DNA from: a virus
Length of the DNA stretch: 64,000 nt
Strand: one strand, 5' to 3'
IMG/VR virus record: IMGVR_UViG_3300029953_000001
The translations under genes and the position numbers were made by a program. The notes beneath the pieces were generated by a model. That model worked only from the letters and a program-made list of their open reading frames with translations. It was not told where the DNA came from and did no database searches. Positions 3,811-62,553 of the stretch are shown here, piece after piece. Position 1 is the first letter of the stretch. Every line of letters starts with the position of its first letter.

Positions 3811-5208
3811 ATGAAGTTCACTAATGACGCGCACCGCGTAGTTACTTATATGCGCCATGTACGCGCACACGATGTTTGGAGGAAGACGCGATTGGCAACT
3901 AAAAAGAAAGACTCAAAGAAGCCCACAACGCCAGCCGATGCTGAGCCTAAACTTACTCAGAACCAGAGAGCTATGCTCTCGGAGCGTGGTAAGAAGTACG
4001 ACCCTGATGCAACCAAGGAAGACTGCATCAACGACCTGCGCGGTGTCCAGAAGGCAAACCCGGATAACTTCATCAGCCGTAACTTCTATCGGGTGACCGG
4101 TCGTTATTCTGAGAAAACTTGGAACCGGTACTTTGGTACCATGGAGGAGTTTCGTTCAGAAGCTGGCCTCCAGCTAAGCCGCAGTCAGCGACACCTTGAG
4201 AAGCACATCGCGAAGCACGCCTCCTTGGATGAGGCTCGTAAGTTCTACCGGGAGGAGATTGAGCCGTGGGTCGAAAAGTTCCCCAAGGCCAATCAAGCCA
4301 AACCGGGAATGAAGAAGATGGTTATCGCTTCGGACTTCCACGACATTGATGTAGACTTGTTCGTCCTCTCGGTCTTCCTTGACACTTGTCGAGTCGAGCA
4401 GCCGGACATCATTGTTCTGAACGGTGACATCTTCGACCTGTACGAGTTCTCCCACTTCGACCGTGACCCCCGTAAAATCAACATGAAGCTCCGTATGGAC
4501 TTTGTGCGTGAGAACATTTTCGCCCCCTTACGTAAGTATTGTCCCAACGCTCAGATTGACCTTATCATCGGAAACCACGAGCTTCGCATCCTGAAGCACA
4601 TGGCCTCCCGTACGGAGAACATGGCGGCGTTGATGGACTTCATGGGTCTGGACTTGGCGGCTCTGTTCGGCTTGCCCAAGTACGAAATCAACCTTGTCTC
4701 CAAAGGAAATACGGCAGCGTATCAGACCAAGGAAATCAAGGAAGAGATGGCGAAGAACTTCAAGCTGTACTTTAACTGCTTGGTTTGCAACCATACTGGT
4801 TACGAGAGCTTTGGCGTGACTACGGTAAGCGGACACACTCACCGGGCGGAGTTGACTTCGGAAGTTCATCTCATCCAAGGTCCCATCAACAAGTTGACCA
4901 CCGGCTGCATGTGCAAGCTGGATGCCGACTATACCAGCACCAAGACCAACTGGCAGAACTCCTTCTGCATCGCCTACATTGACCCCTTCGCAGAGAAGGT
5001 TCAGTTGAATCACGCGATGTTCACGGAGCCGTTCATCAACGTCAACGGTAGGTATTACTACCGCGATTATGAGAGCACGGAGCTTCGTGACTTGCAGTCT
5101 GCTGTTGACCGTATCAAGGAGCAAGAGATTCGCGGCTTCGTTCACAAGGATGAGGGCACCGCAATCGTCGCCGGTCTGAGTAAAGCAAAACGGGCCGGGG
5201 CTATATAG
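3811..5208 (+). CDS. Calcineurin-like metallophosphoesterase (phosphoesterase/nuclease) with basic N-terminal extension
   Basis: All metallophosphoesterase motifs present in order: VIASDFHD (DxH), LNGDIFD (GDxxD), IIGNHE (GNHE), VSGHTHR (GHxH). Confidence 0.85.
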   Translation: MKFTNDAHRVVTYMRHVRAHDVWRKTRLATKKKDSKKPTTPADAEPKLTQNQRAMLSERGKKYDPDATKEDCINDLRGVQKANPDNFISRNFYRVTGRYSEKTWNRYFGTMEEFRSEAGLQLSRSQRHLEKHIAKHASLDEARKFYREEIEPWVEKFPKANQAKPGMKKMVIASDFHDIDVDLFVLSVFLDTCRVEQPDIIVLNGDIFDLYEFSHFDRDPRKINMKLRMDFVRENIFAPLRKYCPNAQIDLIIGNHELRILKHMASRTENMAALMDFMGLDLAALFGLPKYEINLVSKGNTAAYQTKEIKEEMAKNFKLYFNCLVCNHTGYESFGVTTVSGHTHRAELTSEVHLIQGPINKLTTGCMCKLDADYTSTKTNWQNSFCIAYIDPFAEKVQLNHAMFTEPFINVNGRYYYRDYESTELRDLQSAVDRIKEQEIRGFVHKDEGTAIVAGLSKAKRAGAI

Positions 5209-13272: not shown

Positions 13273-13502
13273 AGTGAAGCTCCGAACCCTATGACCGCAG
13301 CTTCAATCTTGCGAAGACGTTCAATCTCGTCTCGAATGGAACAACCAAGGTTCCGGCTAAAGGTAATGGCGTCTTCCTCATCGGCGTTGACCCACGAGAT
13401 GAAGGCATCAAGAAGTAACCGACCCCTCTCCCTCTCCTGTACTGCGTATGGTGCTGTCCCCGTCGTCAGTGTCGGTGGTTGTAGCTTGTATGGTGTCATC
13501 AT
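13269..13502 (-). CDS. Small hypothetical protein (77 aa); 5' end overlaps 3' end of helicase gene by ~95 nt
   Basis: ORF only; overlap makes it uncertain. Confidence 0.3.
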   Translation of the reverse strand: MMTPYKLQPPTLTTGTAPYAVQERERGRLLLDAFISWVNADEEDAITFSRNLGCSIRDEIERLRKIEAAVIGFGASL

Positions 13503-15195
13503 GCTTAGGTATCTCGATTCCGTGGTCTGTTAGGAACTTGGTTGCCATCTTTTTGATGTAGTCGTCATCCGTTTGAAGCTCTTCTACTATAGTTTGGTGA
13601 GGGTTTATAATCCCTTCTAACTGTTGTTTCTTAATACCCAACCGATCTGACATCACTGGGTCAGAACCGTGCTCTGAGAGAAGATAGTAGGCAGTCACAG
13701 GGTCGTCTTGACCGTCACGATGTACACGACCTATGAATTGCTTTAGGGCTGACGGTGACCAATCCAACTCAGCAAATACAACTAGGTGACAAATATCTTG
13801 AAGTCCATCCATTCCGGCACCTGAACGAAGGGACAGAAGCATCACCTTAGACTCTCCACTGATGAATTTCTGCTTGGAAACTTCCTTTTGAACGGAGGAC
13901 TCTGACCCCGAGAACATAACAGGGTTCAAGTCTTTCAACTCTTCCATGAGGACAGAATAAACCTCCCTATGCCATAACCCAACGAGCACAGGCTCCCCCG
14001 AGGTTTCTATCAACATTCGAATGAACTCAGCGGCGTAAGGGCTCTTCGCCACCCCTGTATACTGACGCAACTTAAGGTCAAACTGACCCGCAGCTTGCAT
14101 CTTCTGCCCCTTGAAATCCTGTCCTCCCTGTTTCAGGATTAGTTTAGCCAGTTCAACCGCTTGACCCTTCATCGAGTCAAGCACCTTTAGATCAGCTTCG
14201 ATAAAGTGGGGAACTGAGGTGACCTCAGGAAGCTCTCGCTTCACATCTTTACGAGTGCGACGTAGCATAAGACCGGTGGCGGCGGCGTAACTGCCAAACG
14301 CCGAGGGGTCTTTGATCCTTGGCTTTTGATCCTGATAGGTACACCACTCCCGTTCAAATTCGGCCCAAGTACCCAAGGCACCGGGGCTAAGGATGTCGAT
14401 GACGTTGTAGATTTCTCCGCCGAAGTTAAAAATGGGGGTTGCTGAGAGACCCAACCTATACTCTACATTTTCTGAAATGTGTCTGGCCGCTTTGTACTTC
14501 TGAGAGTCTCGATGACGTAATTCGTGGCACTCATCAACCACTAACCCTTTTAATACAGGGGCCAGCGTCTCGGCCCATCCTGCCAGTTTGTGATAGTTGG
14601 TGATGAACACATCTGGCAATTTACCGTTGGTGTACTTTAGGATGTCGTACGGAGTACCCTTCTTCAGGATGTGGGTGGTCAGGTCGGAGAACTTGTGAAT
14701 CTCAGCCTCCCATTGCTTGGGGAGATGAGATAAGGTGACTACAAGAGCCGGACGGGTGCGAGGGTCGGTGAGCCCCGCGATTGATATTAGGGTTTTTCCT
14801 AAACCAACGTCGTCAGCCAACAGCAGACCATTATTCGCTAACCAGAGCGAAGTTCCAGTCACCTGATAGGGTCTAGGTGGGAGTTTTAGAGTGAAGGTAG
14901 ACAGGAGTTCCTGACCTGAAAGTAGCCGGTCTACCAATGCTACTTTTTCCTTGTACTTACCAGCCTCCCCCAGCATCCTTACTTCAGCTTCGGGGGATAG
15001 TAGGAGTGGGTGGCGTTCGATAAACCACTGTAGGTCTAGGCAGTTTTCGGGTGTGGCTGAAAGTGACTGGGTGCCATACTGCCACGTGTCTATCTTCGCG
15101 AACACCCGCTTGAGGCGGATGGCGATGTGTGGTTCACAGGTGATATCAAACCTGTTCTTCTTCTTGTTATAAGTTACCGAACCATATATTTTCAA
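13408..15195 (-). CDS. SNF2-family (superfamily 2) helicase / DNA-dependent ATPase
   Basis: Motif I LADDVGLGKT, motif II VVDECHELR (DEXH), motif III LSATP, motif VI QFIGRVHRDGQ. Confidence 0.9.
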   Translation of the reverse strand: MKIYGSVTYNKKKNRFDITCEPHIAIRLKRVFAKIDTWQYGTQSLSATPENCLDLQWFIERHPLLLSPEAEVRMLGEAGKYKEKVALVDRLLSGQELLSTFTLKLPPRPYQVTGTSLWLANNGLLLADDVGLGKTLISIAGLTDPRTRPALVVTLSHLPKQWEAEIHKFSDLTTHILKKGTPYDILKYTNGKLPDVFITNYHKLAGWAETLAPVLKGLVVDECHELRHRDSQKYKAARHISENVEYRLGLSATPIFNFGGEIYNVIDILSPGALGTWAEFEREWCTYQDQKPRIKDPSAFGSYAAATGLMLRRTRKDVKRELPEVTSVPHFIEADLKVLDSMKGQAVELAKLILKQGGQDFKGQKMQAAGQFDLKLRQYTGVAKSPYAAEFIRMLIETSGEPVLVGLWHREVYSVLMEELKDLNPVMFSGSESSVQKEVSKQKFISGESKVMLLSLRSGAGMDGLQDICHLVVFAELDWSPSALKQFIGRVHRDGQDDPVTAYYLLSEHGSDPVMSDRLGIKKQQLEGIINPHQTIVEELQTDDDYIKKMATKFLTDHGIEIPKHDDTIQATTTDTDDGDSTIRSTGEGEGSVTS

Positions 15196-18575: not shown

Positions 18576-19970
18576 TTATCGGGTTGTAAGCGTCACAGCT
18601 ACCTTAGGCTTTTTCTTCACAAACGCGACGGCAAGCTGCTTCAACCGGTTACGGGCCTTGTTGAATTCCTTCTGGCTCATGCCAATCTCGTGGCCTTCGT
18701 GAAGCCCCTCCCTGACATCCTTAGTGGTTGCAAGCTTCTTGCAGGTCTGGCAGAACTCCTTCACTGTATCCGTCGCACTACCCGCCACATAGACAGCTTC
18801 AAGAACAGGAAACACATCCGGGTCAGTGTCATGCACATACTCGATGAACTTATGCGCAAAGAAACTGGTCTCAGCCTTCTTTTCCTCTCGGTGGGTAGCT
18901 TCAGTTAGGTAGCTCGACTTAGAGTAAGCGTACTCGTCAGTTACTTCACCGCGACTATCCGGGTTAGTCTCAGCTACCAAGGATACGTTACCAACCAGAC
19001 AGACAGGGTTTTTTTGCCGCTTACCAAAGATGGTATTGAACTTGTTGGTGAGACAATAGTTGACATAACTCCGCCAGCGGCGTTCGCTGGCTCCGTACTG
19101 AGCGAAGGGGTCGAAGGTCTGGATGACATCCTCCTTACCTGCCAAACGGTGCTTGGAGGTCTGAGGCAGATACTTCATGTGAATAATGAGTTCCTGCACC
19201 CAGTCTTCAATGTCTTCCTCAATACCCTTACCGCCCAGCCGCCGTCGCACCCAGTTTTCAAGATAACGGGGGTAGCGTTCAAAAAACTCGCTGAAGTTCT
19301 TCGGCACAACAAACCCGTCGTCACCAATGAATTGACCGCCTTCACTGATGTAGAAGTTGTCCCCCCTGTAGCCTTCACGCGCTGCCAGAGTAGCTTCCTT
19401 GGGAGTCTCGACTTCTACTACGACTGGATTGTTGGGCTGGCTTTGACTATCAGCCTCCGTAGCGGTCGAAGACTCGCAGGGAGTAGACTGGGTGATACCC
19501 TTCTTAGCTGACCATCGGGTCTTTTGTGCTTTCGAAATGCGCTCCTTGACCTCAGGACTCAGGTTACGAGTACGAGTCAACCAACGAGCCTTCTGAGAGT
19601 CGGAAATGCGCTTCCGAGCCTCAGGGCTAAGCTGACGCTTCTGTACCTTAGGCTCCGACGAAACTAAAGTAGAAGGTACAGCCCCGATACGAGCCAGTAC
19701 CTGACTGGTGATGGGCTCCAAAAGCTGAGCAGTGATAGTCTCAGCGAGGTAATTGAGGACGACCTTAAAAGCCGTATCAACTGATTCATTAGGAACAATA
19801 TTTGGTGTCTCTTTGGAGCCGACTGTCGAAGTTTCGACTTTGATTTCCGGCAACAGGTCAGGTACGCTATTCGAAACTGTAGACTGATGCATCCTGCCTC
19901 CACGGCAAAACAAAACCCACGGGTTGGTGGGACTAAGGGTTTCAACACTTCCACTACAATACCGCCGCAA
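18576..19970 (-). CDS. Hypothetical protein with two NUMOD3-like DNA-binding repeats and C-terminal alpha-helical domain (probable start at internal Met, ~19895)
   Basis: Repeats LSPEARKRISDSQKARW and LSPEVKERISKAQKTRW match NUMOD3 consensus (s.E.r.KIS.a.kg); no nuclease motif seen. Confidence 0.5.
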   Translation of the reverse strand: MRRYCSGSVETLSPTNPWVLFCRGGRMHQSTVSNSVPDLLPEIKVETSTVGSKETPNIVPNESVDTAFKVVLNYLAETITAQLLEPITSQVLARIGAVPSTLVSSEPKVQKRQLSPEARKRISDSQKARWLTRTRNLSPEVKERISKAQKTRWSAKKGITQSTPCESSTATEADSQSQPNNPVVVEVETPKEATLAAREGYRGDNFYISEGGQFIGDDGFVVPKNFSEFFERYPRYLENWVRRRLGGKGIEEDIEDWVQELIIHMKYLPQTSKHRLAGKEDVIQTFDPFAQYGASERRWRSYVNYCLTNKFNTIFGKRQKNPVCLVGNVSLVAETNPDSRGEVTDEYAYSKSSYLTEATHREEKKAETSFFAHKFIEYVHDTDPDVFPVLEAVYVAGSATDTVKEFCQTCKKLATTKDVREGLHEGHEIGMSQKEFNKARNRLKQLAVAFVKKKPKVAVTLTTR

Positions 19971-20902: not shown

Positions 20903-23900
20903 CTAACGGCCTCTCCTATGGAAGGGGTTTCGGACTACATCACCCATAGAACTTTCCGTAATTCTTTGAATTTTTCGCATCCGCTCAAGAATCTGGAGGT
21001 CCCGCAAGATAACACCGTCCATATTAATGATAGCCCCTGAAGGGAGGTTCATTTGCTGTGCGATGAGTAGTGACTGACCGGAGGGGTCAATTTTCAAACC
21101 ACCTTCTTCCATGAGCCACTTTTGAGCCTTCCATGCACAGAGTTGAGCCGCGTCCACCATGTCATCATGGCTACCCTTTTCAAGCGGAGCCGCGACCCGA
21201 ATCTGGTACTTGTTAACGTACTCAGCTTCGACCAACCGCAGTTCCTTGAGGAACTTTGGAACGTAGGGGAACCGGCAGCGGGTATCGCGGACATAACCTT
21301 GGAGCACGAAAGCCATCTGTGAGTTCAATGTCGCCGTGAGGTTCACGAGTTCAATGTTGTGAATCTTGTTGAGTTCGAGCAACTGCACAAGCTGCTGTCC
21401 CCCGTGTTGGTCGGTTGCACCACGCCAGCAGGGCATCAGTACATTCAGAGCCTTGAGCCACGCTAGGATGTCTTCCAGCGGGAGAGCCTTGAATCCGACG
21501 TACTTCTCCAATCCCTGTATGTGTCCCACACCGGGGCCTTCAAACTTCTCCCCGACCATCATACGGTCGATGTAGTCATAGACCAAGTGAATCGGCTGTG
21601 AACCCCCGACATACTCCAAGTGGCCGATTGCGACCGCCGTAGCGTCATGACTCATACCCAAGTCGATTGCCCAGAAATACTGGCGACCGATGTCCTTGGG
21701 ATGGAAGTGAGACAGGTTGAACCGAGCAGAAGTTTCGTCGGGCTCTTCAAAACCACCATTCGTCTTGACATACTTCACATCAGTGCAAGCCTGAATTTGT
21801 GCTTCAGTCAAGTACGATTCAGAAGACTCAAGGAAGTTACCCCCGTATTCAGCCTTGAACGTGAGTGGGTTCTTGGTATACTCCGAACGCAGGGTTTCGG
21901 ACAGGATGGTAGGGTTCATCTCCGCTGTGGATAGCCGGATGGTGAATACCTTAGTCTCCTTCGCACCACGCTCCATGGCGTCCTTGTGAATGTCGAACAT
22001 CTTACCGACCTTCGTCCAAGGGCTGGAGATGGAAAGCACAAGAGAGTCTTGGAAGGATTTGTATTCCTCCGGCTTCATAGTGGCCGCAGCGACGAGTTGG
22101 TCTACCCAGCCGCCCTTGAGGTCTTCCGCGTGCTTGAAGTTGACTGTAGACGGCGTGGCGGCTCCGTAGACCTCATCTGAGGATGAGCCCTTGGAGGAAC
22201 GGAAGTGAGCGAACTCGTCCAGAGCGAGGAAGATATTCGAAGGGCCACGGACGGCATTGGTTGTGCTGGCGTAGCTTTTGACGTTAATGGACGGAGTAAC
22301 GTCACGCTTGTGACGGTCAGCTTCAGACACGAAGCCCATCCATGATGAACTGGAAGCCTTCAGATACGGGTTGAAGAAAGGAGCCCGGTTGATGTCTTCG
22401 CGGAGCTTGTCGTAGAGACGGTTGGCACCCTCTTCGTCCTGAGCCATGAATGTGAAGTCGATGTGCGACCCGGCGATGAGGCCGAAGTATTCCTGAGGCG
22501 ACCGGATGTTTAGCAGTTTGTAGAGCTTGTAGGCACCGATGGCGGACACTACCTGAGAGTTGTGGGTGACATTGAAGTTCTTGCCGAACAAATACAGACT
22601 GGTAGGGTTGGTAGTGGTAATACACCGCATGGGCATCCTACCGACAGGTTGAATGTCAGTGATGAACCTCCATTTTTGAGTGGAGTTTACTGTACTAGGG
22701 AGTTCTGCCAATTTCCTTGGAAGACGGAAGACCGGTAGGGTGCCTGTCCATGTTACCCTGTATTTCTCGCCGCAATCCCGGTCATTTAGGATAGCTCTGC
22801 CCTCCCCCCAATAGGGTTTCAGTCCGAGTGAAGCAGCGAGGTGGTATACCCCCTCCGCCAAACTACGATTTGTGTTTGTGAAGTCACATCGGCTGCGGCT
22901 GCAACTCCCATCTGTGTCCATCAGCCCCTGCAACAGAGATAACCTTTGCGGCTCGGACGCCCATAGATATTGATGAGGGATGTGCTTGTTCTTCAAGACT
23001 CCAAGTTGACGCAAGGGAGAGAACAACCCCAGTACGTGCCACCGAGTGGGTGCTTTCTCGTTTTGGTAGAAAGTCATACCCGCCGATTCAAAGTAGGGTA
23101 GTATCTTGTCTGCATCTTCTGGGGCAGCGGTGATAATCCCGCAATCGCTATTTCCATCCCCCAGCCATACCCCCAAACAGTAAGGGTCGAGAAGCAGGTC
23201 AATGTCAGGACAGGTTACTGCCTTTGCAAGTGGGATGCAGTGGTTTGTTTCCTGTTTCTTACCCACCCTTAGAGTAGCTAGGAGTTCTTCGGTAGTGCGC
23301 GTAGTGCCCCCAATGGCGTGCTTAGAACACTTGGCGGCTTTCCGGTCAACCTTGGTTAGGGTGTTCCACAGGTGACCGCCATGGGCGAATACGTGTGTAC
23401 CATCATCAAAGGAGACCTTGAACGCCTCTAACTCTTCAACTGGATGAGCGTACTTTACTTTGTAAACCTGTCCATCCTCACCGAATACGGCGTCTCCTTC
23501 TTCTAAATCGCCGTTTCGCTTACATCCATCTGGTGTTGGGATAGGCTCATCAACGTGAAGCATCTTCCCGCCACGCCGACCCGCAAAAATCGCCGCCTCT
23601 GTGAAGCCCCTCTCCGGCATGTCCCGCCAGTCATTGACGTTGCAACGTCCTTCTTCATGAAGGATATGCAGGCACTCTTCCTCGCTGCACTCGCGAACAG
23701 GGTTCTCGCGGAACACATCCCACATCTGTACCTTAATAGGAGCGAAGTCAATTGGAACTGCGAAGATACACTTCACAATCAACCGCTGAAGCGGGTACAG
23801 TTTAATGTTCAGACCTTGTGGTGACTCGATAAATTCAATGGCATTGAGAAGTTTACTCGCATCTTCTATGGCTCCATCTATGACTTTTCCAAAAACACTA

Positions 23901-23938
23901 CTGTCTGTCGGTTTTGTAAAACGTTGCCCACGGGCCAT
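20903..23938 (-). CDS. terL: Terminase large subunit (ATPase + nuclease) interrupted by an intein
   Basis: Extein Walker A reconstituted as AGRRGGK|S across intein; Walker B-like LALDEFAHF; terminase-size C-extein (~550 aa); intein with Hint blocks and two LAGLIDADG motifs. Confidence 0.85.
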   Translation of the reverse strand: MARGQRFTKPTDSSVFGKVIDGAIEDASKLLNAIEFIESPQGLNIKLYPLQRLIVKCIFAVPIDFAPIKVQMWDVFRENPVRECSEEECLHILHEEGRCNVNDWRDMPERGFTEAAIFAGRRGGKMLHVDEPIPTPDGCKRNGDLEEGDAVFGEDGQVYKVKYAHPVEELEAFKVSFDDGTHVFAHGGHLWNTLTKVDRKAAKCSKHAIGGTTRTTEELLATLRVGKKQETNHCIPLAKAVTCPDIDLLLDPYCLGVWLGDGNSDCGIITAAPEDADKILPYFESAGMTFYQNEKAPTRWHVLGLFSPLRQLGVLKNKHIPHQYLWASEPQRLSLLQGLMDTDGSCSRSRCDFTNTNRSLAEGVYHLAASLGLKPYWGEGRAILNDRDCGEKYRVTWTGTLPVFRLPRKLAELPSTVNSTQKWRFITDIQPVGRMPMRCITTTNPTSLYLFGKNFNVTHNSQVVSAIGAYKLYKLLNIRSPQEYFGLIAGSHIDFTFMAQDEEGANRLYDKLREDINRAPFFNPYLKASSSSWMGFVSEADRHKRDVTPSINVKSYASTTNAVRGPSNIFLALDEFAHFRSSKGSSSDEVYGAATPSTVNFKHAEDLKGGWVDQLVAAATMKPEEYKSFQDSLVLSISSPWTKVGKMFDIHKDAMERGAKETKVFTIRLSTAEMNPTILSETLRSEYTKNPLTFKAEYGGNFLESSESYLTEAQIQACTDVKYVKTNGGFEEPDETSARFNLSHFHPKDIGRQYFWAIDLGMSHDATAVAIGHLEYVGGSQPIHLVYDYIDRMMVGEKFEGPGVGHIQGLEKYVGFKALPLEDILAWLKALNVLMPCWRGATDQHGGQQLVQLLELNKIHNIELVNLTATLNSQMAFVLQGYVRDTRCRFPYVPKFLKELRLVEAEYVNKYQIRVAAPLEKGSHDDMVDAAQLCAWKAQKWLMEEGGLKIDPSGQSLLIAQQMNLPSGAIINMDGVILRDLQILERMRKIQRITESSMGDVVRNPFHRRGR
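22559..23563 (-). mobile_element. Intein (~335 aa) with double LAGLIDADG homing-endonuclease domain inserted in TerL P-loop
   Basis: Begins immediately after GK of Walker A; LGVWLGDGNS and LLQGLMDTDGS (LAGLIDADG x2); C-terminal block G ...FNVTHN followed by +1 Ser; block F has Cys (MRCITT) at canonical Asp position; Trp in block B region. Confidence 0.75.
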
Positions 23939-25242: not shown

Positions 25243-28149
25243 TTAGTCGGAGTCCTTGGTTCCAGTCACAAATTTGTATTTTAGGAGCATAGATTCGGTG
25301 TCAATGGTCTCAGCACGGACAAAAACCTCATACACAAATCCGCCGTCTTTTGCTTCATGCCATACGGCTGCTTGTGCAAAAGCGTCATTAACACAATCCT
25401 GCACCTGACTATCCGTGAGCTTGTCCATGAGGTACTTGACACGAGAGCCGGTGTTGATGAGATTGTAGGCCGGGTTCATGGTGCTCGGCTGTTCAATCTG
25501 TGCCAACTGAATCTCACCGAGTCCCGGAATCTTGTTCATGGGCATACGAGTGGTGGCCTTGAAGGCACCGATGAAGGCAGCGGCAACTTCGCCCATGACC
25601 TTCTTGAGGAAGAGGCCAAACTGATTCTTCTCGTCACCAGCGGCAACCTTGGCCGTGAGCGATGCGAACGCTGAACCCGGAACCATGTCGGTGCCAGCGT
25701 AGAACTCTTCGGTGAACATCGGCCCCCGGATATCGTTCTCCTTGCGGAGGGGGGCACCTTCAAGAACCTGTGACTTACCGTCGCGACCGATACCCATACC
25801 ACCAGCCGGTGATGTGGAAACGTAGCCGATGCGAGTCATGCCTTCGAAGGCATCCTCAATGGCACCGGGCAGCATCTCTTCGCCGTTCTCATCGCCGGGA
25901 ACCGTGTGAGCGTCACCGGACATCTCTGCTGGCATAGGAGCGTTGCTGGCGTTCGGGTAGGAGATAAGCTCGTGCTGGAGTTGAGGGTAGAACTGCTCAA
26001 TCACCTGTCCACCAATCTGCTGGGGGGCAAAGCTGAATCCTGCTGACTTCATAGAACCTTCCTTCTTGGGTGAATCGCCTACATACTCTAAAAACCATGG
26101 TGGAACACTCGCGGAGCCCCAGTTGCCCTCCACCATTTTGTCTGTTCTGATATCAACAGACTGAATGGTGCTGTCTGGCTGGGCTTCTGCTTCCCGCTTA
26201 TGCGTGTAGCCAACGACGGTTGCAAGTTCGCCCGGTTTCATCAACCAACCATCAGTTTGACTGACCCGGACAAGTCGTACACGGTCGCCGGGTTCCAAAC
26301 GGGTAGAGCGGGAGCCGTCTCCATGCTCTTTAACGATACGGAAAGCTGTCTTTGCAGGAATAACACGAACTGGATTACCTCCCGACATTGTGCTCACCTT
26401 GATTTCCGCTGCGATTTCCTTGGCATCCTCGGTACCAAATTCACCGTCGAAGCGGGTTGCCTTCTCTTCTTCAGGGACGATACGGTAGGTTTGGTCAGGT
26501 GCAACCATCACGTACTGGTCACCAACCATGATGATGTACACACGCGAGGAAGGCTGAGTTTGACCTTGATATGGTTCCCGAAAGTCAAGGAACTTCGGGC
26601 CGGGGCCGTCGATGTCGGACATGCCGGAGGTGACAGGTTGGTCTTCCCCACCGATAGCTGGCGCGGCAGACTTGGGTAGATTGACAAATTTAAACGGCCA
26701 TTGCTTTCCACAATCATCACATTTGTTTATGTCCCATAGGGGCTGACCCTTCTGCCACGGGTCATAGCGACGACCGTCCTTGTAGTATGCTGTGTTGTCC
26801 AACGAGCCGCAGTCAGGGCACTGGTCAGGACGAACCACCTTGAATTTATCCCCAAACTTAGCTGATGCGCCTTTGATGAAGGCATTAGCCGTCGCCACGT
26901 TGGAGAACATTAGGGTCTTCTTTTTACCCGCGATGTTGATGATAAGTTGCGTCCCGCTACTCTTGTCCACGGTGATTTCCTTAACCTCGTTTTTAACTTC
27001 AGCTTGGGTCTGTTCAATCGGTTTGCCCACTTCCATCTCAACTTGGGTCTCAATGACTTCACGCATCGCGTTTACATTAGGACGTTCGGTGTGATGTACT
27101 GCTCCATCCAACACTTCCACTCCACCCTTGGTCGAAGCCGGAGAAGAGTTGATGCCGATATCATCCTTAGCCCCCCCTGTACCGGTAGGAGCAGGGGACA
27201 TCGTTTCGAGTTGTGCATCGCTGGTAATCATACCCTGCTTCTCTTGCTGGGCCTTGTACTTGTTGTACTTCGGATTCGTGCAGACAGCCAACGGGTCTCC
27301 ATCATTGAGCCTGTAGTGGTAGTACGTGCCACCGTTGCCCTTCACCGGGGCTTGCTCGGCGTAGGGCATCTTACCCGCACAGTATTCACATCCTTCAGCC
27401 GCTCCCTGCTTGAACGGGGCACGACGTGCCGCCTCATCCTGTGCTGACTCTTCCCTCTTTTTAGCCATAAGGGCTGAAGTGTCAGCCTTACGCTTATCAA
27501 GTTCACACTGAGAGTGGGTGGTGAAAATGTTGGTGTAGTCAGATGGGCTTCCTCCGTGGCGCTCAGCACGTTCCTTCGCCGATGGCGACAGGGTGATTGG
27601 CTTGTGGCAGATGGTGCAAAGCTTTGCTCCGGTCTTGGCAGCAAAGATTTCCGGGTGCCGTGCTCTGTCTTCAGGGGAGGGAACCGTACCACCAGTGCCG
27701 TGACAGATGTTACAAGTCTGCGGGATGCTGGAGTTGGGCTCCGTTGAACGGAACTTACCCTGTCCGTTGCAGTGCTTGCAAGCTCCGCTCGGATACATCG
27801 TTTGAGGGTTCCATGCACCAGTCTTGGTGCGGGGCGGCGGGAACTGTTTGCCGTTCTTGTCGTAGATAATGTACTCGTCTCCGTGTGCAGCCTCAGTCAA
27901 CTCCGCGATGTCCTGAGGAGTGAGGTAGGGCTCATCGGTGGGGTCGGCTTCTACAGTGTTGTACAACAGTTCATGGGAGGCACACCACGGGTCTTGGCTG
28001 AGACTGCTCATGTGGTTACCGCAAGAGTGGCCGTTAGCATTCTTGGCCTCGCACTCCGGCTGCTCTTCACCAAATGACCCAGCCCAATCCTCGTACTGCT
28101 GTGAGGTTGCACCGGGCATGTTGTAGTCGGATTTCTTATCGGTAGCCAT
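25243..28149 (-). CDS. Large hypothetical protein (968 aa) with N-terminal DnaJ-like C-x2-C-x-G-x-G zinc-finger repeats; probable virion-associated protein
   Basis: CKHCNGQGKF, CNICHGTGG, CEYCAGKMPY motifs; start coupled to upstream stop (ATG overlaps TAA at 28149). Confidence 0.6.
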   Translation of the reverse strand: MATDKKSDYNMPGATSQQYEDWAGSFGEEQPECEAKNANGHSCGNHMSSLSQDPWCASHELLYNTVEADPTDEPYLTPQDIAELTEAAHGDEYIIYDKNGKQFPPPRTKTGAWNPQTMYPSGACKHCNGQGKFRSTEPNSSIPQTCNICHGTGGTVPSPEDRARHPEIFAAKTGAKLCTICHKPITLSPSAKERAERHGGSPSDYTNIFTTHSQCELDKRKADTSALMAKKREESAQDEAARRAPFKQGAAEGCEYCAGKMPYAEQAPVKGNGGTYYHYRLNDGDPLAVCTNPKYNKYKAQQEKQGMITSDAQLETMSPAPTGTGGAKDDIGINSSPASTKGGVEVLDGAVHHTERPNVNAMREVIETQVEMEVGKPIEQTQAEVKNEVKEITVDKSSGTQLIINIAGKKKTLMFSNVATANAFIKGASAKFGDKFKVVRPDQCPDCGSLDNTAYYKDGRRYDPWQKGQPLWDINKCDDCGKQWPFKFVNLPKSAAPAIGGEDQPVTSGMSDIDGPGPKFLDFREPYQGQTQPSSRVYIIMVGDQYVMVAPDQTYRIVPEEEKATRFDGEFGTEDAKEIAAEIKVSTMSGGNPVRVIPAKTAFRIVKEHGDGSRSTRLEPGDRVRLVRVSQTDGWLMKPGELATVVGYTHKREAEAQPDSTIQSVDIRTDKMVEGNWGSASVPPWFLEYVGDSPKKEGSMKSAGFSFAPQQIGGQVIEQFYPQLQHELISYPNASNAPMPAEMSGDAHTVPGDENGEEMLPGAIEDAFEGMTRIGYVSTSPAGGMGIGRDGKSQVLEGAPLRKENDIRGPMFTEEFYAGTDMVPGSAFASLTAKVAAGDEKNQFGLFLKKVMGEVAAAFIGAFKATTRMPMNKIPGLGEIQLAQIEQPSTMNPAYNLINTGSRVKYLMDKLTDSQVQDCVNDAFAQAAVWHEAKDGGFVYEVFVRAETIDTESMLLKYKFVTGTKDSD

Positions 28150-31100
28150 TATTTCACCCCTACAACAATTCCGTCCTTAACCATAACTTCCGCGTACCAG
28201 CGATGGGGCTCTGGGTACCAAGGGCCTTCGACTGTTGCCCGACCATTCATTGGGGGTTCACCCATGCCGGGGTTATAGAGAGAAATCTGCTTGCCAGACA
28301 GAACAGCTTCCCTGAAGTCCTTCTTACTCTTGAAATTCTTGCTGGCGTAAGAGCCCGTCTTTGCACCAGCGGTAATCTGTGTCGGAAGATTGTCGGCGAG
28401 GTCGGCCAGTTCGCCAAAGGTGTCGCTCATCTCTACTGCCTCATCGTGCTCGTCACCAGCGGCGGCGAAGTGCTCTGGGTTCACGGTCTTGGTTGCTTCA
28501 GGGCTGTCGGCTAGTTCAGCCTTGGCACCAGCATCCAGTTCAGACTTCGCATCAGCAATGTCACCAGAAATAGCATCCGCCCTCTTACGAGCGATGGCAG
28601 CAAGTACCTTCACCTTTGCGGCTTCCTCAACCGACTTCACCGGCTGCTTGATGTCAGCATCGACCGATGCAGGGGACTCCACTTCGGCCTTAGCCTCAGA
28701 GATGTCCCCACTTATATCAGCAGCGGACTTGGACGCCTGTGCCTCTTCCTGCTTCTTCAACTGCTCCTGCTGCTTCACACGCTGCATCTCACGGTACTTG
28801 TCGTCTCCCGTGGAGTCCGTTTTAGCAACCTTATCGTCACGCAGACCGTCGTCGCAACCACCAACCTTAGCCGCTTCTTCAACGGTCTTGACCGGCTGCT
28901 TGATGTCGGCGTCAACTGTGGTCGGAGATACAACCTCAGCCTTGGCTTCGGAGATGTCTGCGCTCACGTCGTTGCCCGTCTTCGAGGGAGGGCAGTCACA
29001 CTGAGTGCTAATCTTGTTGCAACCACTGCACGAGTAGTAGTTGTCTTCCTCGCCTTCTCCGCCAATCAGCTTACGTCCGCACTTGCAAGGGAATAGGGCA
29101 GTCGCCTTCTTCGCCGCAGCCACCTTCTTCGAACTGATGACCAATGACGGCATGACCATACCAGCTTTGAGACCGCGACGGGTCATGAACGCCTTGATAG
29201 GTGCCATCGCCTTCTTGACATCTTCAACGGTGACGGGCACCTGACCCGGCATACTGTTGCGGCTGTTGTCCTTAGCCTTCTGTACCAGACCCATCAGCGA
29301 TGACGCAGCGTGAGCCGGAAGCGGCCACGAGTGCCAACCATCGGAGTTGCTGTTGACTTCATCAGCGAACGCGGCGAGGAAGTTGCACACCGGCCCGATG
29401 ATTGGGTCTTGAGCGAACCGACGCTGGGCGTCCTGAATCTCGTAGTCGTTCATCCAAGTAGCCATCTTAGCCGAGGCTGACTTGTCAGGGCGGTGTTCGT
29501 CGCAGTACATGCGTCCGTCAATCTTGACCGTCTCAGGCTTCATGCAGACCTGACCCGGACCTTTTGCCCGACCCTGAGTGTCTGTCTCGCCGACGTAAGT
29601 ACGGCAACCGTGTTCACCGGGATACTGGTCAAACGCAGCTTCCTTCGGAGTTTCCTTCTTCTCTTCCTTCGGCTCTTCAGCCTTGGGCTCCGCTGGCTTC
29701 TCGGCCTTGTCCTTGTTGAACATCTTGGACTTGAACCCGTCCTTCTTGGGAGCATCGGTCTTAGGTTCAGATTCGGAAACGCCGCTGTCGCCAGTCTCAT
29801 CGCCGCCCTTGGGAGCGGAGCCTTCACCCGGAAGTTCAACCTGCGGAGCCTCACCGAAGTCTTCGGTGATAGCATCCCAGATGCTATCTTCAGTCAGATT
29901 CACGTTGGCCTTCTTGCGACGGATGGCGTACTTGTTCAGGTGGTTCTCGTTCTTCACACGTGCGGCCTTGGCGTTGGTCGAGAGTGCGTCGGTGTCATCG
30001 GTCAAGTCCAAGTCGATGGCGTCAACCACCGCAGCCACGATGTCGAAGCTGGTCTTCTTCGCTGACTTTGCTGACTCCAATGGTCGTTCCCGCAACACGT
30101 GAGCCGGGAGACCCTCAAGCTTCTCCATCATGATGCCGCCCTTGGCTTCCCAGTAGCGGTTGGCATCCTCATAAGAAGTGCAGACTCGTCCATTCACGGT
30201 GTACTGTGGATATGACGCAGCAACCTTACGCTCTTCCTCAGCACGACGCGGCACACCGGTCTCGTCAATTGCGATACCGATAGGTGCGTCACCCTTGGTC
30301 GAGATGGTGTCAACTGCTACAGCGATAGCCTTGTTCGCATTGTCGTGAGCGGAGGTTCCCGGCCCGACGTTGGTGAACGGGGTCTCGAAAGGAGCCTCTG
30401 AGCCCATCTTCATGGCGTCTTCGTTCATCTCCTGCGTGTAGGAACCCTTCTCGCCGTAGTCAGGGCGATGACGCAGTTCTGTTCCGTCATCAAGAGCCGA
30501 AACCTTTGACAGACTATCTGCGGCCCTCTGGAGCACAGTCTTCTTTGTATTCTCATCAAAGCCCATAAATTCTTTGATGGACATACCCGCTTCTGCCAAT
30601 AACGAAGACATAGGGTACCGATTAGGGTTTGCCGCAGCAGTCTTCGGCTCATCCTCTTCCTTGGTGTTTTGGATGGAGTCCTTGATGTCGGCAATTTCTG
30701 GAATCTCAGCGTTGCCGTGGTTGGAACCGTCAGGCCCCTTGTAGTCGGCCACATCTTCCATCGCATCAACCGGAGGCATGGTGACTTCATTGAGAACCGC
30801 GTCGAGTTCATCGAACACGCTCAACTCCTGAGGCTCAAGCACTTCCTGAGTGATGGCGTCCGCCGTCTTGGCGGTGAGGAAAATCTTGGTCTTCGTCCAA
30901 CCACCCTGCTTCGAGAACTCAGGGTACGCAGTGAGCGGATTCTGAGTGAGGAAGGGGTAGGTCAGCTTCGGGGTGATGTCGGTAACGTCCAGCTTGTTGG
31001 TGTCCACCGTGGTCATCAATGCGTCGAACGCGGAGGAGACAGCCGGGTTGAAGTACGCCGAGAACACAAGGTGGCGGAGCAGGTTAGAGAGCTTATCGTC

Positions 31101-31565
31101 TTCGTCCGTGAACTTGAAGCCGATGTACTCGCGGATGTTCGACCAGTGAGGAGCGAAGATAACCAGCGAGGTTAAGTCGCCCTCCTCGTTCGTGAAGAAC
31201 TTGTCCTTGATAGCGGCGTAGTCAGCTTGGCTGTATTCATCAAATTCGGTGTCGCCCATTTTGTTGGTGATGAGGTCTGCGGTCTCTTCGCCGAGATTCA
31301 GTTCCTTGACCACAGTGCCGTAGAGCAGGGCAATGGGGAAGTTGTTACGAACGTCGCAGACCTTCGCCGGGACGATGAAGATGCGCCCGATGGAGATGTT
31401 CTGACGGAAACCTGAATAAAAAATCTCAAAAGATTTTACATCGCCAGACGTGCGTGCGTCTTTCTCACCAGCCTTGACGGCCTCTACGACCTTGGCGAGG
31501 AGCCCTTCGTTGACAACGAAGGACTGGAAAGATTTAATTGCGACTGAGTTCCCACTAGCGGCCAT
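28149..31565 (-). CDS. Large hypothetical protein (1138 aa) with internal 37-aa tandem-like repeats, Lys/Glu-rich linker and Cys clusters; probable virion/internal protein
   Basis: Repeated ADISEAKAEV(V/E)SP..VDADIKQPVK(T/S)VEEAAKV units; strong RBS AGGAG 8 nt before ATG. Confidence 0.65.
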   Translation of the reverse strand: MAASGNSVAIKSFQSFVVNEGLLAKVVEAVKAGEKDARTSGDVKSFEIFYSGFRQNISIGRIFIVPAKVCDVRNNFPIALLYGTVVKELNLGEETADLITNKMGDTEFDEYSQADYAAIKDKFFTNEEGDLTSLVIFAPHWSNIREYIGFKFTDEDDKLSNLLRHLVFSAYFNPAVSSAFDALMTTVDTNKLDVTDITPKLTYPFLTQNPLTAYPEFSKQGGWTKTKIFLTAKTADAITQEVLEPQELSVFDELDAVLNEVTMPPVDAMEDVADYKGPDGSNHGNAEIPEIADIKDSIQNTKEEDEPKTAAANPNRYPMSSLLAEAGMSIKEFMGFDENTKKTVLQRAADSLSKVSALDDGTELRHRPDYGEKGSYTQEMNEDAMKMGSEAPFETPFTNVGPGTSAHDNANKAIAVAVDTISTKGDAPIGIAIDETGVPRRAEEERKVAASYPQYTVNGRVCTSYEDANRYWEAKGGIMMEKLEGLPAHVLRERPLESAKSAKKTSFDIVAAVVDAIDLDLTDDTDALSTNAKAARVKNENHLNKYAIRRKKANVNLTEDSIWDAITEDFGEAPQVELPGEGSAPKGGDETGDSGVSESEPKTDAPKKDGFKSKMFNKDKAEKPAEPKAEEPKEEKKETPKEAAFDQYPGEHGCRTYVGETDTQGRAKGPGQVCMKPETVKIDGRMYCDEHRPDKSASAKMATWMNDYEIQDAQRRFAQDPIIGPVCNFLAAFADEVNSNSDGWHSWPLPAHAASSLMGLVQKAKDNSRNSMPGQVPVTVEDVKKAMAPIKAFMTRRGLKAGMVMPSLVISSKKVAAAKKATALFPCKCGRKLIGGEGEEDNYYSCSGCNKISTQCDCPPSKTGNDVSADISEAKAEVVSPTTVDADIKQPVKTVEEAAKVGGCDDGLRDDKVAKTDSTGDDKYREMQRVKQQEQLKKQEEAQASKSAADISGDISEAKAEVESPASVDADIKQPVKSVEEAAKVKVLAAIARKRADAISGDIADAKSELDAGAKAELADSPEATKTVNPEHFAAAGDEHDEAVEMSDTFGELADLADNLPTQITAGAKTGSYASKNFKSKKDFREAVLSGKQISLYNPGMGEPPMNGRATVEGPWYPEPHRWYAEVMVKDGIVVGVK
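28616..28960. repeat. Two ~110-bp imperfect direct repeats (~235 bp apart) inside the 1138-aa gene, encoding the 37-aa repeat
   Basis: cttcaccggctgcttgatgtcagcatcgaccgatgc...cagagatgtcccc vs cttgaccggctgcttgatgtcggcgtcaactgtggt...cggagatgtctgc seen in sequence. Confidence 0.6.
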
Positions 31566-36676: not shown

Positions 36677-36707
36677 AAGGGCAGCAACTTCGGTTGCTGC
36701 CCTTTTT
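36677..36707 (+). terminator. Rho-independent terminator (AAGGGCAGCAAC-TTCG-GTTGCTGCCCTT + TTTTT)
   Basis: 12-bp perfect stem, tetraloop, T-run on plus strand; between convergent genes. Confidence 0.7.
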
Positions 36708-38307
36708 ACCTATCCACAATAAATATGATGCGGCTACCCTCTGGTGTCTCCACTACCTCTTCCATGTGCTCAGGGTAAATCTTGCACAGGGATTTGTAAT
36801 GCGAAGAGCCCGGAACCGTAGCTACCACATATCGGAACTTTTGGAAAAGAACTTTTACTTTAGATTCCAAGAACGTGGACTTCCATTGAGTGGGGGGCTC
36901 GTGGTACATCGGGGCATGGGTCTGTGGTGAATTGACGACGGTCGGAGATAGAGGCAGAGCGTTGTTCAACGCTACCGACCCTCCAAACTCAAACCCTTCC
37001 TCAATCATAGGCATTGTCACGTTAGGGTGGCAGATGCAAGCCGTAACCGCAGTGTTCCATTCCGGCTGATGGTAGATGATGAGGGAGTAACGCAGGTCGT
37101 TATGTACATTAATTCCCTGCTTGTGCAAAGCATGAGAGCACCAGCGGTCCTCCGCCGTGTCCGATGTCAGTGGTGCAGCGGCGACGATCTGCATAGCACG
37201 CTTGCTCAACCAGTAAGCCGCACCTGAAGCCCACGAGGGATTCCCCCCACGGTTCTCCCTACCTGTATAGTCATGCTGCTGCCAGCCAGCTTGAACCAGA
37301 CGCGGGACTTCTACATAAGTATCGTCGTCCACCTTGCACACATACTCATAGCCGTTGTCGAGCACCCACTGATAGATAGCCTTCATTTTTGCCGGGAGAC
37401 CAAGGTACCCGTCGTCCACATCGAGGAACACTTCATCCTCCAGCGGTTCACGAGTTGCACCGTTGCCGTAGAATATTTTGTAGTCCACCTTGTACATCGA
37501 CTTAAGCCACGTCTTGCGAATCTCATCTACCCGATGCTGGTACTTATGGCACGCGACCACCGCCACGATGAACTTAGGGAGAGGTAGGGGAGCCGGAGGC
37601 GTGGACTCAGAGCCGAAGAACTCAGAGACCCCGCGCTTACGCAAGAAAATGCGATGACCCAGAGCTTTGGCACGTCCACGGAACGAAGCGTAGCGAGGGT
37701 CTTCCTTATCCCGGTTGTAGGGCAGGGTGGTGATATTCACATCGGAGACGGCGACTACCTTCAACTCATGGTCTTTCAGGGTGAGGAACCAGTCACCATG
37801 TTCCCCCCCAATTTTCATCCGCTCGTCCCATGGGTATGGACGGATAGATTCTGTACGGGCGAGGAAATAGTTCACTACGAGGTCACATTGGGTGATGTTC
37901 CTCGTAATGTTGAGTTTAGTCTGGGCGATATACTGGCCGGGTGCGACAATCAGGTCACCCTCGTACACGTTTCCATCCACGTGTCCGCCAGCCACGTCGA
38001 TGCTCGGGTCAGCGTCAAGTACCGAGAGCAGGCGTTCGATGCCTCGACGTGCCTCGTCGGTAGAGAAGTCGAAGTCGTCGGAGCCCATCAAAAGGTATTT
38101 TGTACGTGTAGCAGCTACCCCGTGGTTTCGTTTCACCGACAGTCCCGAGTCAAACTTTAGGGATATGGTAGCTCCGGCTATGCCGCTGTCGTCTACAACC
38201 ACCACCTGACATTCAGGAAGGTTCTTTTTGATACCTGCCAAGCAGTCCGCCAAATATCCCGGACGCAGAAAAGATGTAATGAGAATTGTTACATTAGATA
38301 GACTCAA
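36706..38307 (-). CDS. Two-domain glycosyltransferase (N-terminal GT2-like; C-terminal GT with DDD motif, Fringe/GT31-like)
   Basis: VTILITSFLRPGYL...QVVVVDDSG; second half KIFYGNG...KVDDDTYV. Confidence 0.7.
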   Translation of the reverse strand: MSLSNVTILITSFLRPGYLADCLAGIKKNLPECQVVVVDDSGIAGATISLKFDSGLSVKRNHGVAATRTKYLLMGSDDFDFSTDEARRGIERLLSVLDADPSIDVAGGHVDGNVYEGDLIVAPGQYIAQTKLNITRNITQCDLVVNYFLARTESIRPYPWDERMKIGGEHGDWFLTLKDHELKVVAVSDVNITTLPYNRDKEDPRYASFRGRAKALGHRIFLRKRGVSEFFGSESTPPAPLPLPKFIVAVVACHKYQHRVDEIRKTWLKSMYKVDYKIFYGNGATREPLEDEVFLDVDDGYLGLPAKMKAIYQWVLDNGYEYVCKVDDDTYVEVPRLVQAGWQQHDYTGRENRGGNPSWASGAAYWLSKRAMQIVAAAPLTSDTAEDRWCSHALHKQGINVHNDLRYSLIIYHQPEWNTAVTACICHPNVTMPMIEEGFEFGGSVALNNALPLSPTVVNSPQTHAPMYHEPPTQWKSTFLESKVKVLFQKFRYVVATVPGSSHYKSLCKIYPEHMEEVVETPEGSRIIFIVDR

Positions 38308-61700: not shown

Positions 61701-62553
61701 CACCACCCAATTCGTGAAATGCGACATTGCCTTCGTCACTGGAATAAGCCCTTCCAGCTTGCGATGCATTGTAGAGATATATCCCTCCGGTATCACCTAC
61801 ACTAGGGGCAAAGTGCCAGATAGTCAAAGCCTGCTTTGTCGAAGCCGCCGACATATTGTCATAAATTTGAACCGTGGTGGCAGACGTTCCTTCTGCGGCT
61901 AATAGCCCATTCGATAAAGAGTAAGGTCCATACGAGGTCATATTAAATGTATGACCTGATGTCCCATTTGTGAGTGGAGGTTGCAAGGTGTAGTTTTCCT
62001 CAAAAGCGGACAGACCTCCGTAGATCGCCCCCGGTTGAGTGAAGAATGACGCATTGGGTGCTGTGAGATTCTGAGTCGAGGTGCCCAGCGTCTGTGTAAC
62101 CTGCGTAATACCCGCCGTGCTTTCGTTGATGTGTGAGGGACCACCAATAGTGTTAGCATTAGTTGCCAGACCTACATAATTGGGGGTTTGACCTACGACC
62201 GAGCCACTGCCCCCACTCCCGCTACAGGAGAGCACTCCCGCTGAAACCGTGCAGGAAGTTCCGTCTGGCTTCATAAGTCCAAGGGTTGAGTTAGTTGCGA
62301 CTGGAGCATTGGAGGACAGTGCATCCCAATAGGAGGATAGAGATGCCGGAGTGTGCCCCGAGTTATTGGCGACCTTGGAGATGTAAGTCAACCCACCATA
62401 GGTAACCATGTCGTTGACGTTATAGGATATTGAGCCACTCCACGCCCCCAGATATACTACCAGCGTACGTGTAATTTGGGCGGAAAGGGGGGTGGGGGCG
62501 GCTACACCCAGTCCAACAGCCATCGCCAATATTACCAACAAAAGTCGCTTCAT
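58774..62553 (-). CDS. Giant (1259 aa) signal-peptide protein with N-terminal CBM5/12-like carbohydrate-binding module and Ser/Thr/Gly-rich beta-rich body; candidate fibre/adhesin
   Basis: MKRLLLVILAMAVGLGVAAPTPLSAQ; W..G..YNVNDMVTYGGLTYISKVANNSGHTP....YWDAL resembles CBM5/12 (W..G..Y..GD.V.Y.G..Y.......G..P....W). Confidence 0.65.
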   Translation of the reverse strand: MKRLLLVILAMAVGLGVAAPTPLSAQITRTLVVYLGAWSGSISYNVNDMVTYGGLTYISKVANNSGHTPASLSSYWDALSSNAPVATNSTLGLMKPDGTSCTVSAGVLSCSGSGGSGSVVGQTPNYVGLATNANTIGGPSHINESTAGITQVTQTLGTSTQNLTAPNASFFTQPGAIYGGLSAFEENYTLQPPLTNGTSGHTFNMTSYGPYSLSNGLLAAEGTSATTVQIYDNMSAASTKQALTIWHFAPSVGDTGGIYLYNASQAGRAYSSDEGNVAFHELGGEAVPDSPTVGTYSAPNITFSAHNCGGPGIPQQCWPSAGSQLVETTAPIVTTQLRGYSTGFTAWSAPCNTAALYWMYQMATSGGLPTTSVGGCAINVNLEPNTTPDAPVSTSIAMQGGSGTFSIGDSVAVIGNQFLEESKITGVSGSAPTQTITLPITRPNVSVVVLKSHLHNLTSAADLASPYNLRTGYWATDSLDGTNLIYMTEGTSSVNPFQLPQQYSEQMQVSLPATTSFVYNYTNTYVFDGVNDQQNITTSSCTSGSTFPAWNSSLNGHTTWGTCTFANRGTTPSNVTLYPAARIVKSGSGTPPSTFQLGPNGGTWSAEVVSDTNFDEQGTAFIQGTNRCLTAGEAGCQGFFFQESGLGATASNGGAIDIENANDESFYLNADGSLKGAAPPTFMSAGTEGFGGSTSGLFGSDFISNLSPYGIAFQWNNWATGQTSMTEFKDPAGNTISSNTSGQWLFNGNSACFSGGTFCNSSYLDYGVTQGGVISANAPFAPLDGVFGNSSTAGHLLMSGESFASIGSTSDRIDLYASGFGYPSVNSFAGGVALRGENGPNTGMVWIDSYNPYSLWPAHVGNVGLNWTAGNAVPYPLSVHGIAGFGCSGSSTTVVGTCPAQIDASGDATFVALTATGSLSSGVSPPTGCSTITGGCLGLNEATGSGTPTVGQFYMYVPISTGKVTWDVGAAGETSIWSPAQGGSGVANTATLTLGTSNQNWATLATGIVKNTTTTGAISDAVAADVYGLWSGSCSSSTFLRGDGACAAAGGSVSNLYTNAGSLGIGPTTFVPTDTLDIQDTTSGTGNTAVRILSGPGQLGDPLDIKLPNGYSFHFDLYGHLGIPGAINNLEGFPTVGVGTSADRADTGQIAATGPIGTTTLFNDSQNQSGPWYYGCSLWVTTAWAGTATVTLGYTDPAGNAQSYSYPALNTTTGHPNLNGSPIQVSTVATFATNNFTYAVSTSGTVGGYTVDCTLTQAN

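Follow-up and report, generated by a model that had tools for sequence, protein, structure and literature searches.

A probable class 3 intein with a LAGLIDADG endonuclease domain in the Walker A motif of a jumbo-phage large terminase

We analyzed a 64,000-nucleotide stretch of viral DNA, IMG/VR record IMGVR_UViG_3300029953_000001 (the window, by which the whole stretch is meant), in which the gene for the large terminase subunit (TerL) is split by an insert of 335 amino acids (aa). Judged from its diagnostic residues and from a structural model, this insert is very probably a class 3 (WCT) intein with an in-frame double-LAGLIDADG endonuclease, lying between the Walker A Lys and Ser of a jumbo-phage TerL. 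The Walker A pattern [AG]xxxxGK[ST] occurs nowhere in the 1011-aa precursor, and removal of the insert leaves a 676-aa product in which a pattern search finds exactly one such motif, AGRRGGKS, at residue 119. A first, sequence-only reading had placed a 335-aa insert at 22559-23563, proposed that its removal restores the P-loop and expected a spliced terminase of about this length; its coordinates and residues all proved correct, and intein-free homologs read GRRGGK/SQVV across the same point (here and below, a slash within a sequence marks a junction).

The interrupted terminase gene and its insert

The TerL precursor is encoded by an open reading frame (ORF) at 20903..23938, stop codon included, on the minus strand, as are all features of the gene and insert given below, and has a predicted mass of 113.6 kDa. 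That the gene is a phage large terminase is evident from its ATPase motifs, its homology to an annotated TerL and its syntenic phage neighbors. Among 50,697 phage records, the best tblastn match was the cultured Tunturiibacter phage Tunturi_5 (PP885688.1, 308.7 kb), whose alignment breaks into two parts on either side of the insert and covers the gene annotated as terminase large subunit (gp1). The exteins are 45% identical to this annotated protein, and families of terminases in PHROG match both of them. In a multiple alignment the 637-aa Tunturi_5 TerL reads IYAGRRGGK/SQVVSAIA without interruption.

The N-extein (aa 1-125; 23564..23938) is collinear with the N-terminal ends of relatives that lack the intein and ends in AGRRGGK, the first part of Walker A. 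The C-extein (551 aa; 20903..22558, stop codon included), delimited by alignment with relatives, holds the remainder of the ATPase, with Walker B FLALDE at residue 235 of the spliced product, and the nuclease domain. Its first residue, Ser+1 (TCT, 22556..22558), is the Walker A Ser, as both the codon and the alignment indicate. Between the flanks AIFAGRRGGK and SQVVSAIG, and thus between the Lys and Ser of Walker A, lies the insert MLHVDEP...FNVTHN, which comprises precursor residues 126-460 (1005 nt, window 23563..22559). Its first codon is ATG (Met1, 23561-23563) and its last AAC (Asn335, 22559-22561), each read directly in the DNA. Predicted masses are 76.2 kDa for the spliced TerL and 37.4 kDa for the free intein.

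With the spliced sequence as query, a large protein collection yielded 276 relatives, many of them on contigs of 200-465 kb. Of the best 120, 93 are short with a continuous AGRRGGK/S[QE]VV P-loop and 21 are long with the P-loop interrupted. The boundaries of the insert are exact because intein-free homologs read AGRRGGK/SQVVSAI straight across; the Met at position 1, the FNVTHN ending and the Ser that follows, all noted in the sequence-only reading, are thereby fixed.

Sequence, fold and a family-specific hidden Markov model (HMM) agree in describing the insert (22559..23563) as a predicted class 3 intein whose Hint splicing domain is split by a LAGLIDADG endonuclease domain. Block A begins with the non-nucleophilic Met1 (A:1), a position that varies in relatives. 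Block B holds His64-Leu65-Trp66 (23366..23374) within HGGHLW, with His64 at B:10 and, two residues on, the Trp of the WCT triad at B:12. Block F carries Cys314 (TGT, 22622..22624; F:4) within PMRCITT, the predicted first nucleophile, and block G closes the insert with Thr333-His334-Asn335 (22559..22567), identified from codons and alignment as the WCT Thr at G:5, the penultimate His and the terminal Asn. The first LAGLIDADG motif, LGVWLGDGNS (aa 130-139; 23147..23176), contains the presumed catalytic Asp136 and is assigned by conservation and by fold matches to PI-SceI and I-DmoI; the second, LLQGLMDTDGS (aa 210-220; 22904..22936), contains Asp216 and Asp218 and is assigned by PF14528 and conservation. 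The endonuclease domain as a whole would span approximately aa 120-275 (22739..23206), limits that we infer from the alternation of helices and strands (H127-245) and from I-DmoI matches over about 174 aligned columns.

In a phmmer search of PDB sequences, the closest solved relatives were class 3 DnaB-1 mini-inteins (E ~1e-10) from Mycobacterium chimaera (6RIX, 6RIY) and M. smegmatis (6BS8), each of which aligns in two segments, one for the N-terminal and one for the C-terminal Hint half. HGGHLW aligns with AAHQW of 6RIX and 6BS8, PMRCITT with VPVRCVEV, so that Cys314 falls on the Cys of their RC, and VTHN with PTHN. An alignment of 50 relatives (38-61% identical) shows His64, Trp66, Cys314, Thr333, His334 and Asn335 to be invariant. 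So are G131, W133, L134, G135, D136 and G137 of motif 1 and D216 and G219 of motif 2, where D218 is conserved in at least 90%. The AlphaFold2 model built from this alignment is very confident (mean predicted local distance difference test, pLDDT, 96.3; predicted template modelling score, pTM, 0.93). Its top Foldseek match in PDB is PI-SceI (E = 4e-20; query template modelling score, TM, 0.79), followed by the endonuclease-containing inteins TliVMA and PhoVMA; the class 3 mini-inteins of DnaB reach a target TM of 0.80-0.87, and I-DmoI, a monomeric double-LAGLIDADG enzyme, is matched as well. Monomeric enzymes of this two-motif type are marked by a pair of LAGLIDADG helices, each with a catalytic acidic residue at its end, in an alpha-beta-beta-alpha-beta-beta-alpha pseudo-dimer. 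As modelled, then, the insert is a Hint fold joined to a double-LAGLIDADG endonuclease, in line with the Hint blocks and two motifs that the sequence-only reading had recognized. Pfam matches only the second LAGLIDADG half of the insert (PF14528, E = 2e-6, aa 207-250). Across six frames of the window, the intein-family HMM scores on the TerL ORF alone (E = 1e-127) and detects no second intein of the family.

Class 3 assignment, residue 1 and predicted splicing

Class 3 inteins are defined by a non-nucleophilic residue 1, by co-variation of Trp B:12, Cys F:4 and Thr G:5, and by a +1 residue that is Ser or Thr (Tori et al. 2010, PMC2807308), and their definition and mechanism are also set out in PMC4031507. 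Splicing in this class proceeds by way of a branched thioester at block F, for which Cys F:4 is obligatory. Most of them reside in the ATPase P-loops of helicases and phage terminases (PMC2807308). All five sequence features are present here, namely Met1, Trp66, Cys314, Thr333 (followed by His-Asn) and Ser+1, which points to the WCT architecture that had been suggested from the block B Trp and block F Cys. The same signature runs through the family: among 115 full-length members taken from 50%-identity cluster representatives, Trp is found in 114, Cys in all 115 and Thr in 113, and position +1 holds Ser in 67 members and Thr in 44 (111/115 Ser or Thr). An exhaustive search returned 17,417 representatives of clusters with a cutoff of E ≤ 0.001, and 3,700 with E ≤ 1e-30. 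The family is very large and already described, and the copy in the window is an ordinary member of it.

The insertion site is equally familiar. The “classic P-loop” site TerL1-a is documented (Kelley et al. 2016, PMC5050341), 287 class 3 inteins, mainly in TerL and Cas4, have been counted in actinobacteriophages (Gosselin et al. 2025, bioRxiv), and the jumbo phages Rak2 and K64-1 have TerL inteins with a LAGLIDADG endonuclease (PMC5259590). Class 3 inteins at the TerL P-loop K/S or K/T site have been known since 2010 (Tori 2010; Kelley 2016; Gosselin 2025). The nearest comparison is with TerL inteins of cluster E mycobacteriophages (Cjw1, Easy2Say; PMC5050341; Gosselin 2025), which share the Walker A Lys/Ser or Lys/Thr insertion point, the Hint domain with in-frame LAGLIDADG, and the WCT, His and Asn residues, at about 34% identity over a stretch that includes the intein. 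In alignment, the TerL of Easy2Say reads GK/ALDVETPILT...VCIQ...PTHN/T and that of Krischvirus Ec_Makalu_003 GK/ALDVNTPIPT...KCIQ...PTHN/T, both at the same site. The window intein differs from those of actinobacteriophage TerLs in residing in another terminase family, that of Tunturi_5-like jumbo phages, and in having Met1 rather than Ala and Ser rather than Thr at +1.

Other well-studied inteins resemble the insert in part. The mycobacterial DnaB-1 mini-inteins (6BS8, 6RIX, 6RIY) likewise follow the GK of a P-loop and align at W, C and THN, whereas they have no endonuclease, begin with Ala and reside in a bacterial helicase. The DnaB intein of mycobacteriophage Bethlehem, the class 3 prototype (PMC2807308), shares the non-nucleophilic residue 1, WCT, Ser/Thr +1 and P-loop location; it has Pro1 and a helicase host, and its mechanism was shown by experiment, whereas that of the window intein is drawn from its likeness to the family. 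PI-SceI, the yeast VMA1 intein, is the best overall fold match and likewise has an endonuclease of the double-LAGLIDADG type inserted in its Hint domain, but it is a class 1 intein (Cys1) of 454 aa with only 16-18% sequence identity.

Met1 had been singled out in the sequence-only reading as an unusual first residue, and this emphasis did not hold up, given that Met1 makes up ~9-10% of the family and that TerL P-loop class 3 inteins are well documented (PMC2807308, PMC5050341). In the 120 best intein homologs, residue 1 is Ala in 81, Met in 11, Gln in 11, Leu in 6, Arg in 3, Gly in 2 and Lys in 1; in 110 full-length members (50%-identity representatives) it is Ala in 65, Leu in 16, Met in 10, Pro in 8, Gly in 3, His, Ser and Glu in 2 each, and Cys and Arg in 1 each. 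These counts are numeric evidence that position 1 of class 3 inteins varies freely (Ala, then Leu, Met, Pro and others). Inteins with Met1 follow GK in many different P-loop proteins. Orthologous inteins at the TerL site of the window all end FGKNFNVTHN/S and differ in residue 1: those of P0121, P0124 and P0128 begin with Met, four others with Leu, eight with Ala and that of P0180 with Glu. By sequence, Met1 is therefore a regular minority state of the position and no oddity. The searchable literature, which does not cover the table of Tori & Perler 2011, contained no paper mentioning Met1 in a class 3 intein. In the Bethlehem DnaB intein, substitution of Pro1 lowers splicing (Tori et al., PMC2807308), so position 1 is not wholly neutral within a given intein, though variable family-wide. 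Nothing supports Met1 as an internal translation start, the product of which would be a terminase without its N-extein.

A splicing route for the window protein can be predicted by analogy with the intein family. After translation, Cys314 would attack the Lys125-Met1 peptide bond, with the aid expected of His64 and Trp66 in block B, to give a branched thioester, and the N-extein would then be handed to the side chain of Ser+1. Cyclization of Asn335, aided by His334, would release the 37-kDa intein, and an O-to-N acyl shift would yield the 676-aa TerL with its GRRGGKS P-loop intact. In this scheme Met1 would contribute only its backbone nitrogen.

TerL is essential. An identical 1011-aa gene occurs on 18 contigs, and the four of these loci that were read are 100% identical in DNA and come from four different JGI metagenome samples. 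Because an essential protein with a split P-loop nonetheless recurs as an identical gene on 18 contigs, the intein is presumably active in splicing.

Endonuclease state, homing and rival explanations

The distribution of the intein is that of a mobile element, patchy among close TerL relatives: the nearest intein-free proteins, P0122 and P0123 (78-79% identical), are as close to the window TerL as the intein-bearing P0124 (77-79%). Homing would presumably begin when the endonuclease cleaves terminase alleles without an intein, at the conserved sequence that codes for the P-loop, upon which the intein would be copied in. The candidate cleavage target is the intein-free junction GCGGGTCGGCGTGGCGGGAAG/TCTCAGGTAGTGTCCGCC. 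The intein-free allele L008, which encodes P0126, agrees with the joined exteins of the window at 48 of 60 nt in the junction region, so that this allele is a plausible homing target. Both catalytic Asp residues, D136 and D218, are retained.

Several observations weigh against a splicing and homing intein. The Pfam Hint models give no score on the splicing domain, and NCBIfam returns nothing significant for the precursor or the insert; profile libraries alone would thus under-call this intein, with standard Hint profiles missing its splicing domain. The nearest orthologs carry an additional 40-60 aa, GxCxCGCG...GH, after block B, which the window intein lacks (~23317-23335). Furthermore P0121 (JGI, 997 aa), a protein 100% identical to the precursor in all other respects, has a 14-aa in-frame deletion, SCSRSRCDFTNTNR, directly past motif 2. 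The deletion is known from the protein record rather than from contig DNA; it corresponds to approximately 22862-22903 (minus strand; intein aa 221-234), the coordinates being approximate owing to an AGTT repeat, and the 42-nt segment is flanked in the window DNA by AGTT microhomology. P0121 may represent an endonuclease-inactivated allele in the same phage population, and by its sequence the deletion hints at endonuclease decay there. Because the insertion is absent and the 14-aa deletion variant exists, the predicted endonuclease activity is uncertain.

The insertion is carried by P0124, P0128, P0132, P0137, P0138, P0142, P0162 and P0194 and may be a zinc-binding, DNA-contacting module. The window intein is the shortest full-length member of its orthologous group.

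The explanation that survives best beside a fully active element is that splicing functions while the endonuclease is already inactive, so that the intein is inherited only vertically, late in the homing cycle. We hold this to be possible, if doubtful. The missing CxCGCG insertion and the population variant without 14 aa beside motif 2 speak for it, as does G+C content, which is 51.0% in the intein against 50.1% and 53.1% in the exteins and gives no sign of recent import. It must be set against the retention of D136, D218 and family-invariant residues including K193, the high confidence with which the endonuclease domain is modelled, and the patchy distribution among TerLs 75-79% identical, which suggests ongoing gain and loss.

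That the insert is a decayed, non-splicing remnant in a dead terminase gene is very unlikely. A precedent exists in the inactive class 3-like intein pseudogene Arth_1007 of Arthrobacter FB24 (PMC3196547), and both the short length of the intein within its orthologous group and the existence of the deletion variant could be read in this way. However, the Arthrobacter case is WDT and not WCT, whereas here W66, C314, T333, H334, N335, H64 and S+1 are all intact in an uninterrupted frame of 1011 codons. Recurrence of the identical gene on 18 contigs, with the four that were read coming from separate metagenome samples, also argues against decay, as do the very confident AlphaFold model and the intact neighboring phage genes syntenic with Tunturi_5.

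Slimmer still is the chance of a different chemistry, either a class 2-like direct attack by Ser+1 or a class 1 reaction in which shifted boundaries would provide a nucleophile at position 1. Class 2 inteins do likewise have a non-nucleophilic residue 1 (PMC4031507), but these are orthologs of KlbA in which residue 1 is Ala, F:4 is Asp, G:6 is Ser and +1 is Cys (PMC4031507), and none of this fits here. Shifted class 1 boundaries are ruled out by the intein-free alleles, which fix the junctions, and no Cys, Ser or Thr adjoins the N-terminal one (GGK/MLH); the full WCT signature is present besides. Finally, the idea that the insert is a native, non-excised terminase domain, for which no supporting point was found, is refuted and has next to no chance of being right: 93 of the 120 best relatives have a continuous P-loop without it, the precursor has no other Walker A, and the same element follows GK in unrelated hosts, namely a dCTP deaminase, a DNA methylase and ATPases of the AAA type. 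The favored reading of the insert remains that of a class 3 intein with a double-LAGLIDADG endonuclease; the similarity to solved class 3 inteins and the modelled Hint fold are what the sequence-only reading had proposed to look for.

For annotation, this means that the terminase of a Tunturi_5-like jumbo phage is to be entered as a protein of 676 aa together with an intein of 335 aa. The finding raises no new question and resolves no old one, and its value lies chiefly in correct annotation; it also contributes a compact class 3 intein with an endonuclease domain from a phage group without previously described ones. A secondary value is the natural series that these relatives offer for position 1 of class 3 inteins and for the decay of their endonucleases. 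Should Met1 or the trimming alter the rate or regulation of splicing, for example through redox control via the ten Cys residues, the intein would be a new functional variant. We think it improbable that the TerL lineage, with its variable residue 1, trimmed copy, P0121 deletion and second-site sisters with Cys+1 (see below), amounts to a natural experiment on class 3 position 1 and the homing cycle.

Other inteins of the relatives and the phage neighborhood

Two TerL relatives, P0136 and P0147, have an intact P-loop and carry a sister class 3 intein (ALEVNEPIPT...VRCISxKHPSGLFLFGKNFNVTHN) at a non-P-loop site, EEGR/CNV, with Cys at +1, a residue reported to be exceptional for class 3 (PMC2807308). 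The empty counterpart of this site in the window is R98/C99 (23645/23644, minus strand). From its sequence, this intein seems to have moved ectopically within the terminase gene. A third site is occupied in the TerL relative P0170, where an insert of ~400 aa, CLDENELIW...GVTHN/C, adjoins the conserved TTNAVRG; the corresponding position in the spliced TerL of the window is at about aa 221-224 (SYA/STTNAVRG). By its sequence the P0170 insert looks like a class 1 intein.

Inteins of the same family as the window copy, at 38-46% identity, also follow GK in very different hosts (proteins P0002-P0120). These include an actinobacterial dCTP deaminase (RLEGK/...THN/SSLGRLGL), an N6/N4 DNA methylase (RRAYGK/.../SHDYLF), AAA/DnaC-like ATPases, and 580-aa proteins without a Pfam domain (LSYYLLGK/.../TQTTLA).

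A megablast search with 20 kb around TerL found no near-identical DNA among the 50,697 phage records. Tunturi_5 is the best or only match for the neighbors of TerL, which keep the same gene order. Taken together with the match of TerL itself, this synteny identifies the source of the window as an uncultivated Tunturi_5-like jumbo phage of soil. No tRNA genes were found in the 64-kb window. Three of its ORFs were noted as having no intein of the TerL-insert family: an SNF2-family helicase (13408-15195, minus strand; PF00176, E = 2.5e-25), a metallophosphoesterase (3811-5208, plus strand; phrog_20266, E = 4e-59) and a glycosyltransferase-like protein (36706-38307, minus strand). Among the neighbors of TerL in the gene order of Tunturi_5, all on the minus strand, a 464-aa ORF (18576-19970) shares 34% identity with an RNA polymerase sigma factor, and the N-terminal 250 aa of a 1138-aa ORF (28149-31565) are 46% identical to a DarB-like antirestriction protein. 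Adjacent to the latter, a 968-aa ORF (25243-28149, minus strand) contains many CxxC pairs, and its matches are limited to a weak one to a DnaJ zinc finger and one of 45 aa in PHROG. Two giant ORFs of 1794 and 1259 aa (52873-58257 and 58774-62553, both minus strand) match only carbohydrate-binding or chitobiase C-terminal domains and may encode tail fibre or host-recognition proteins.

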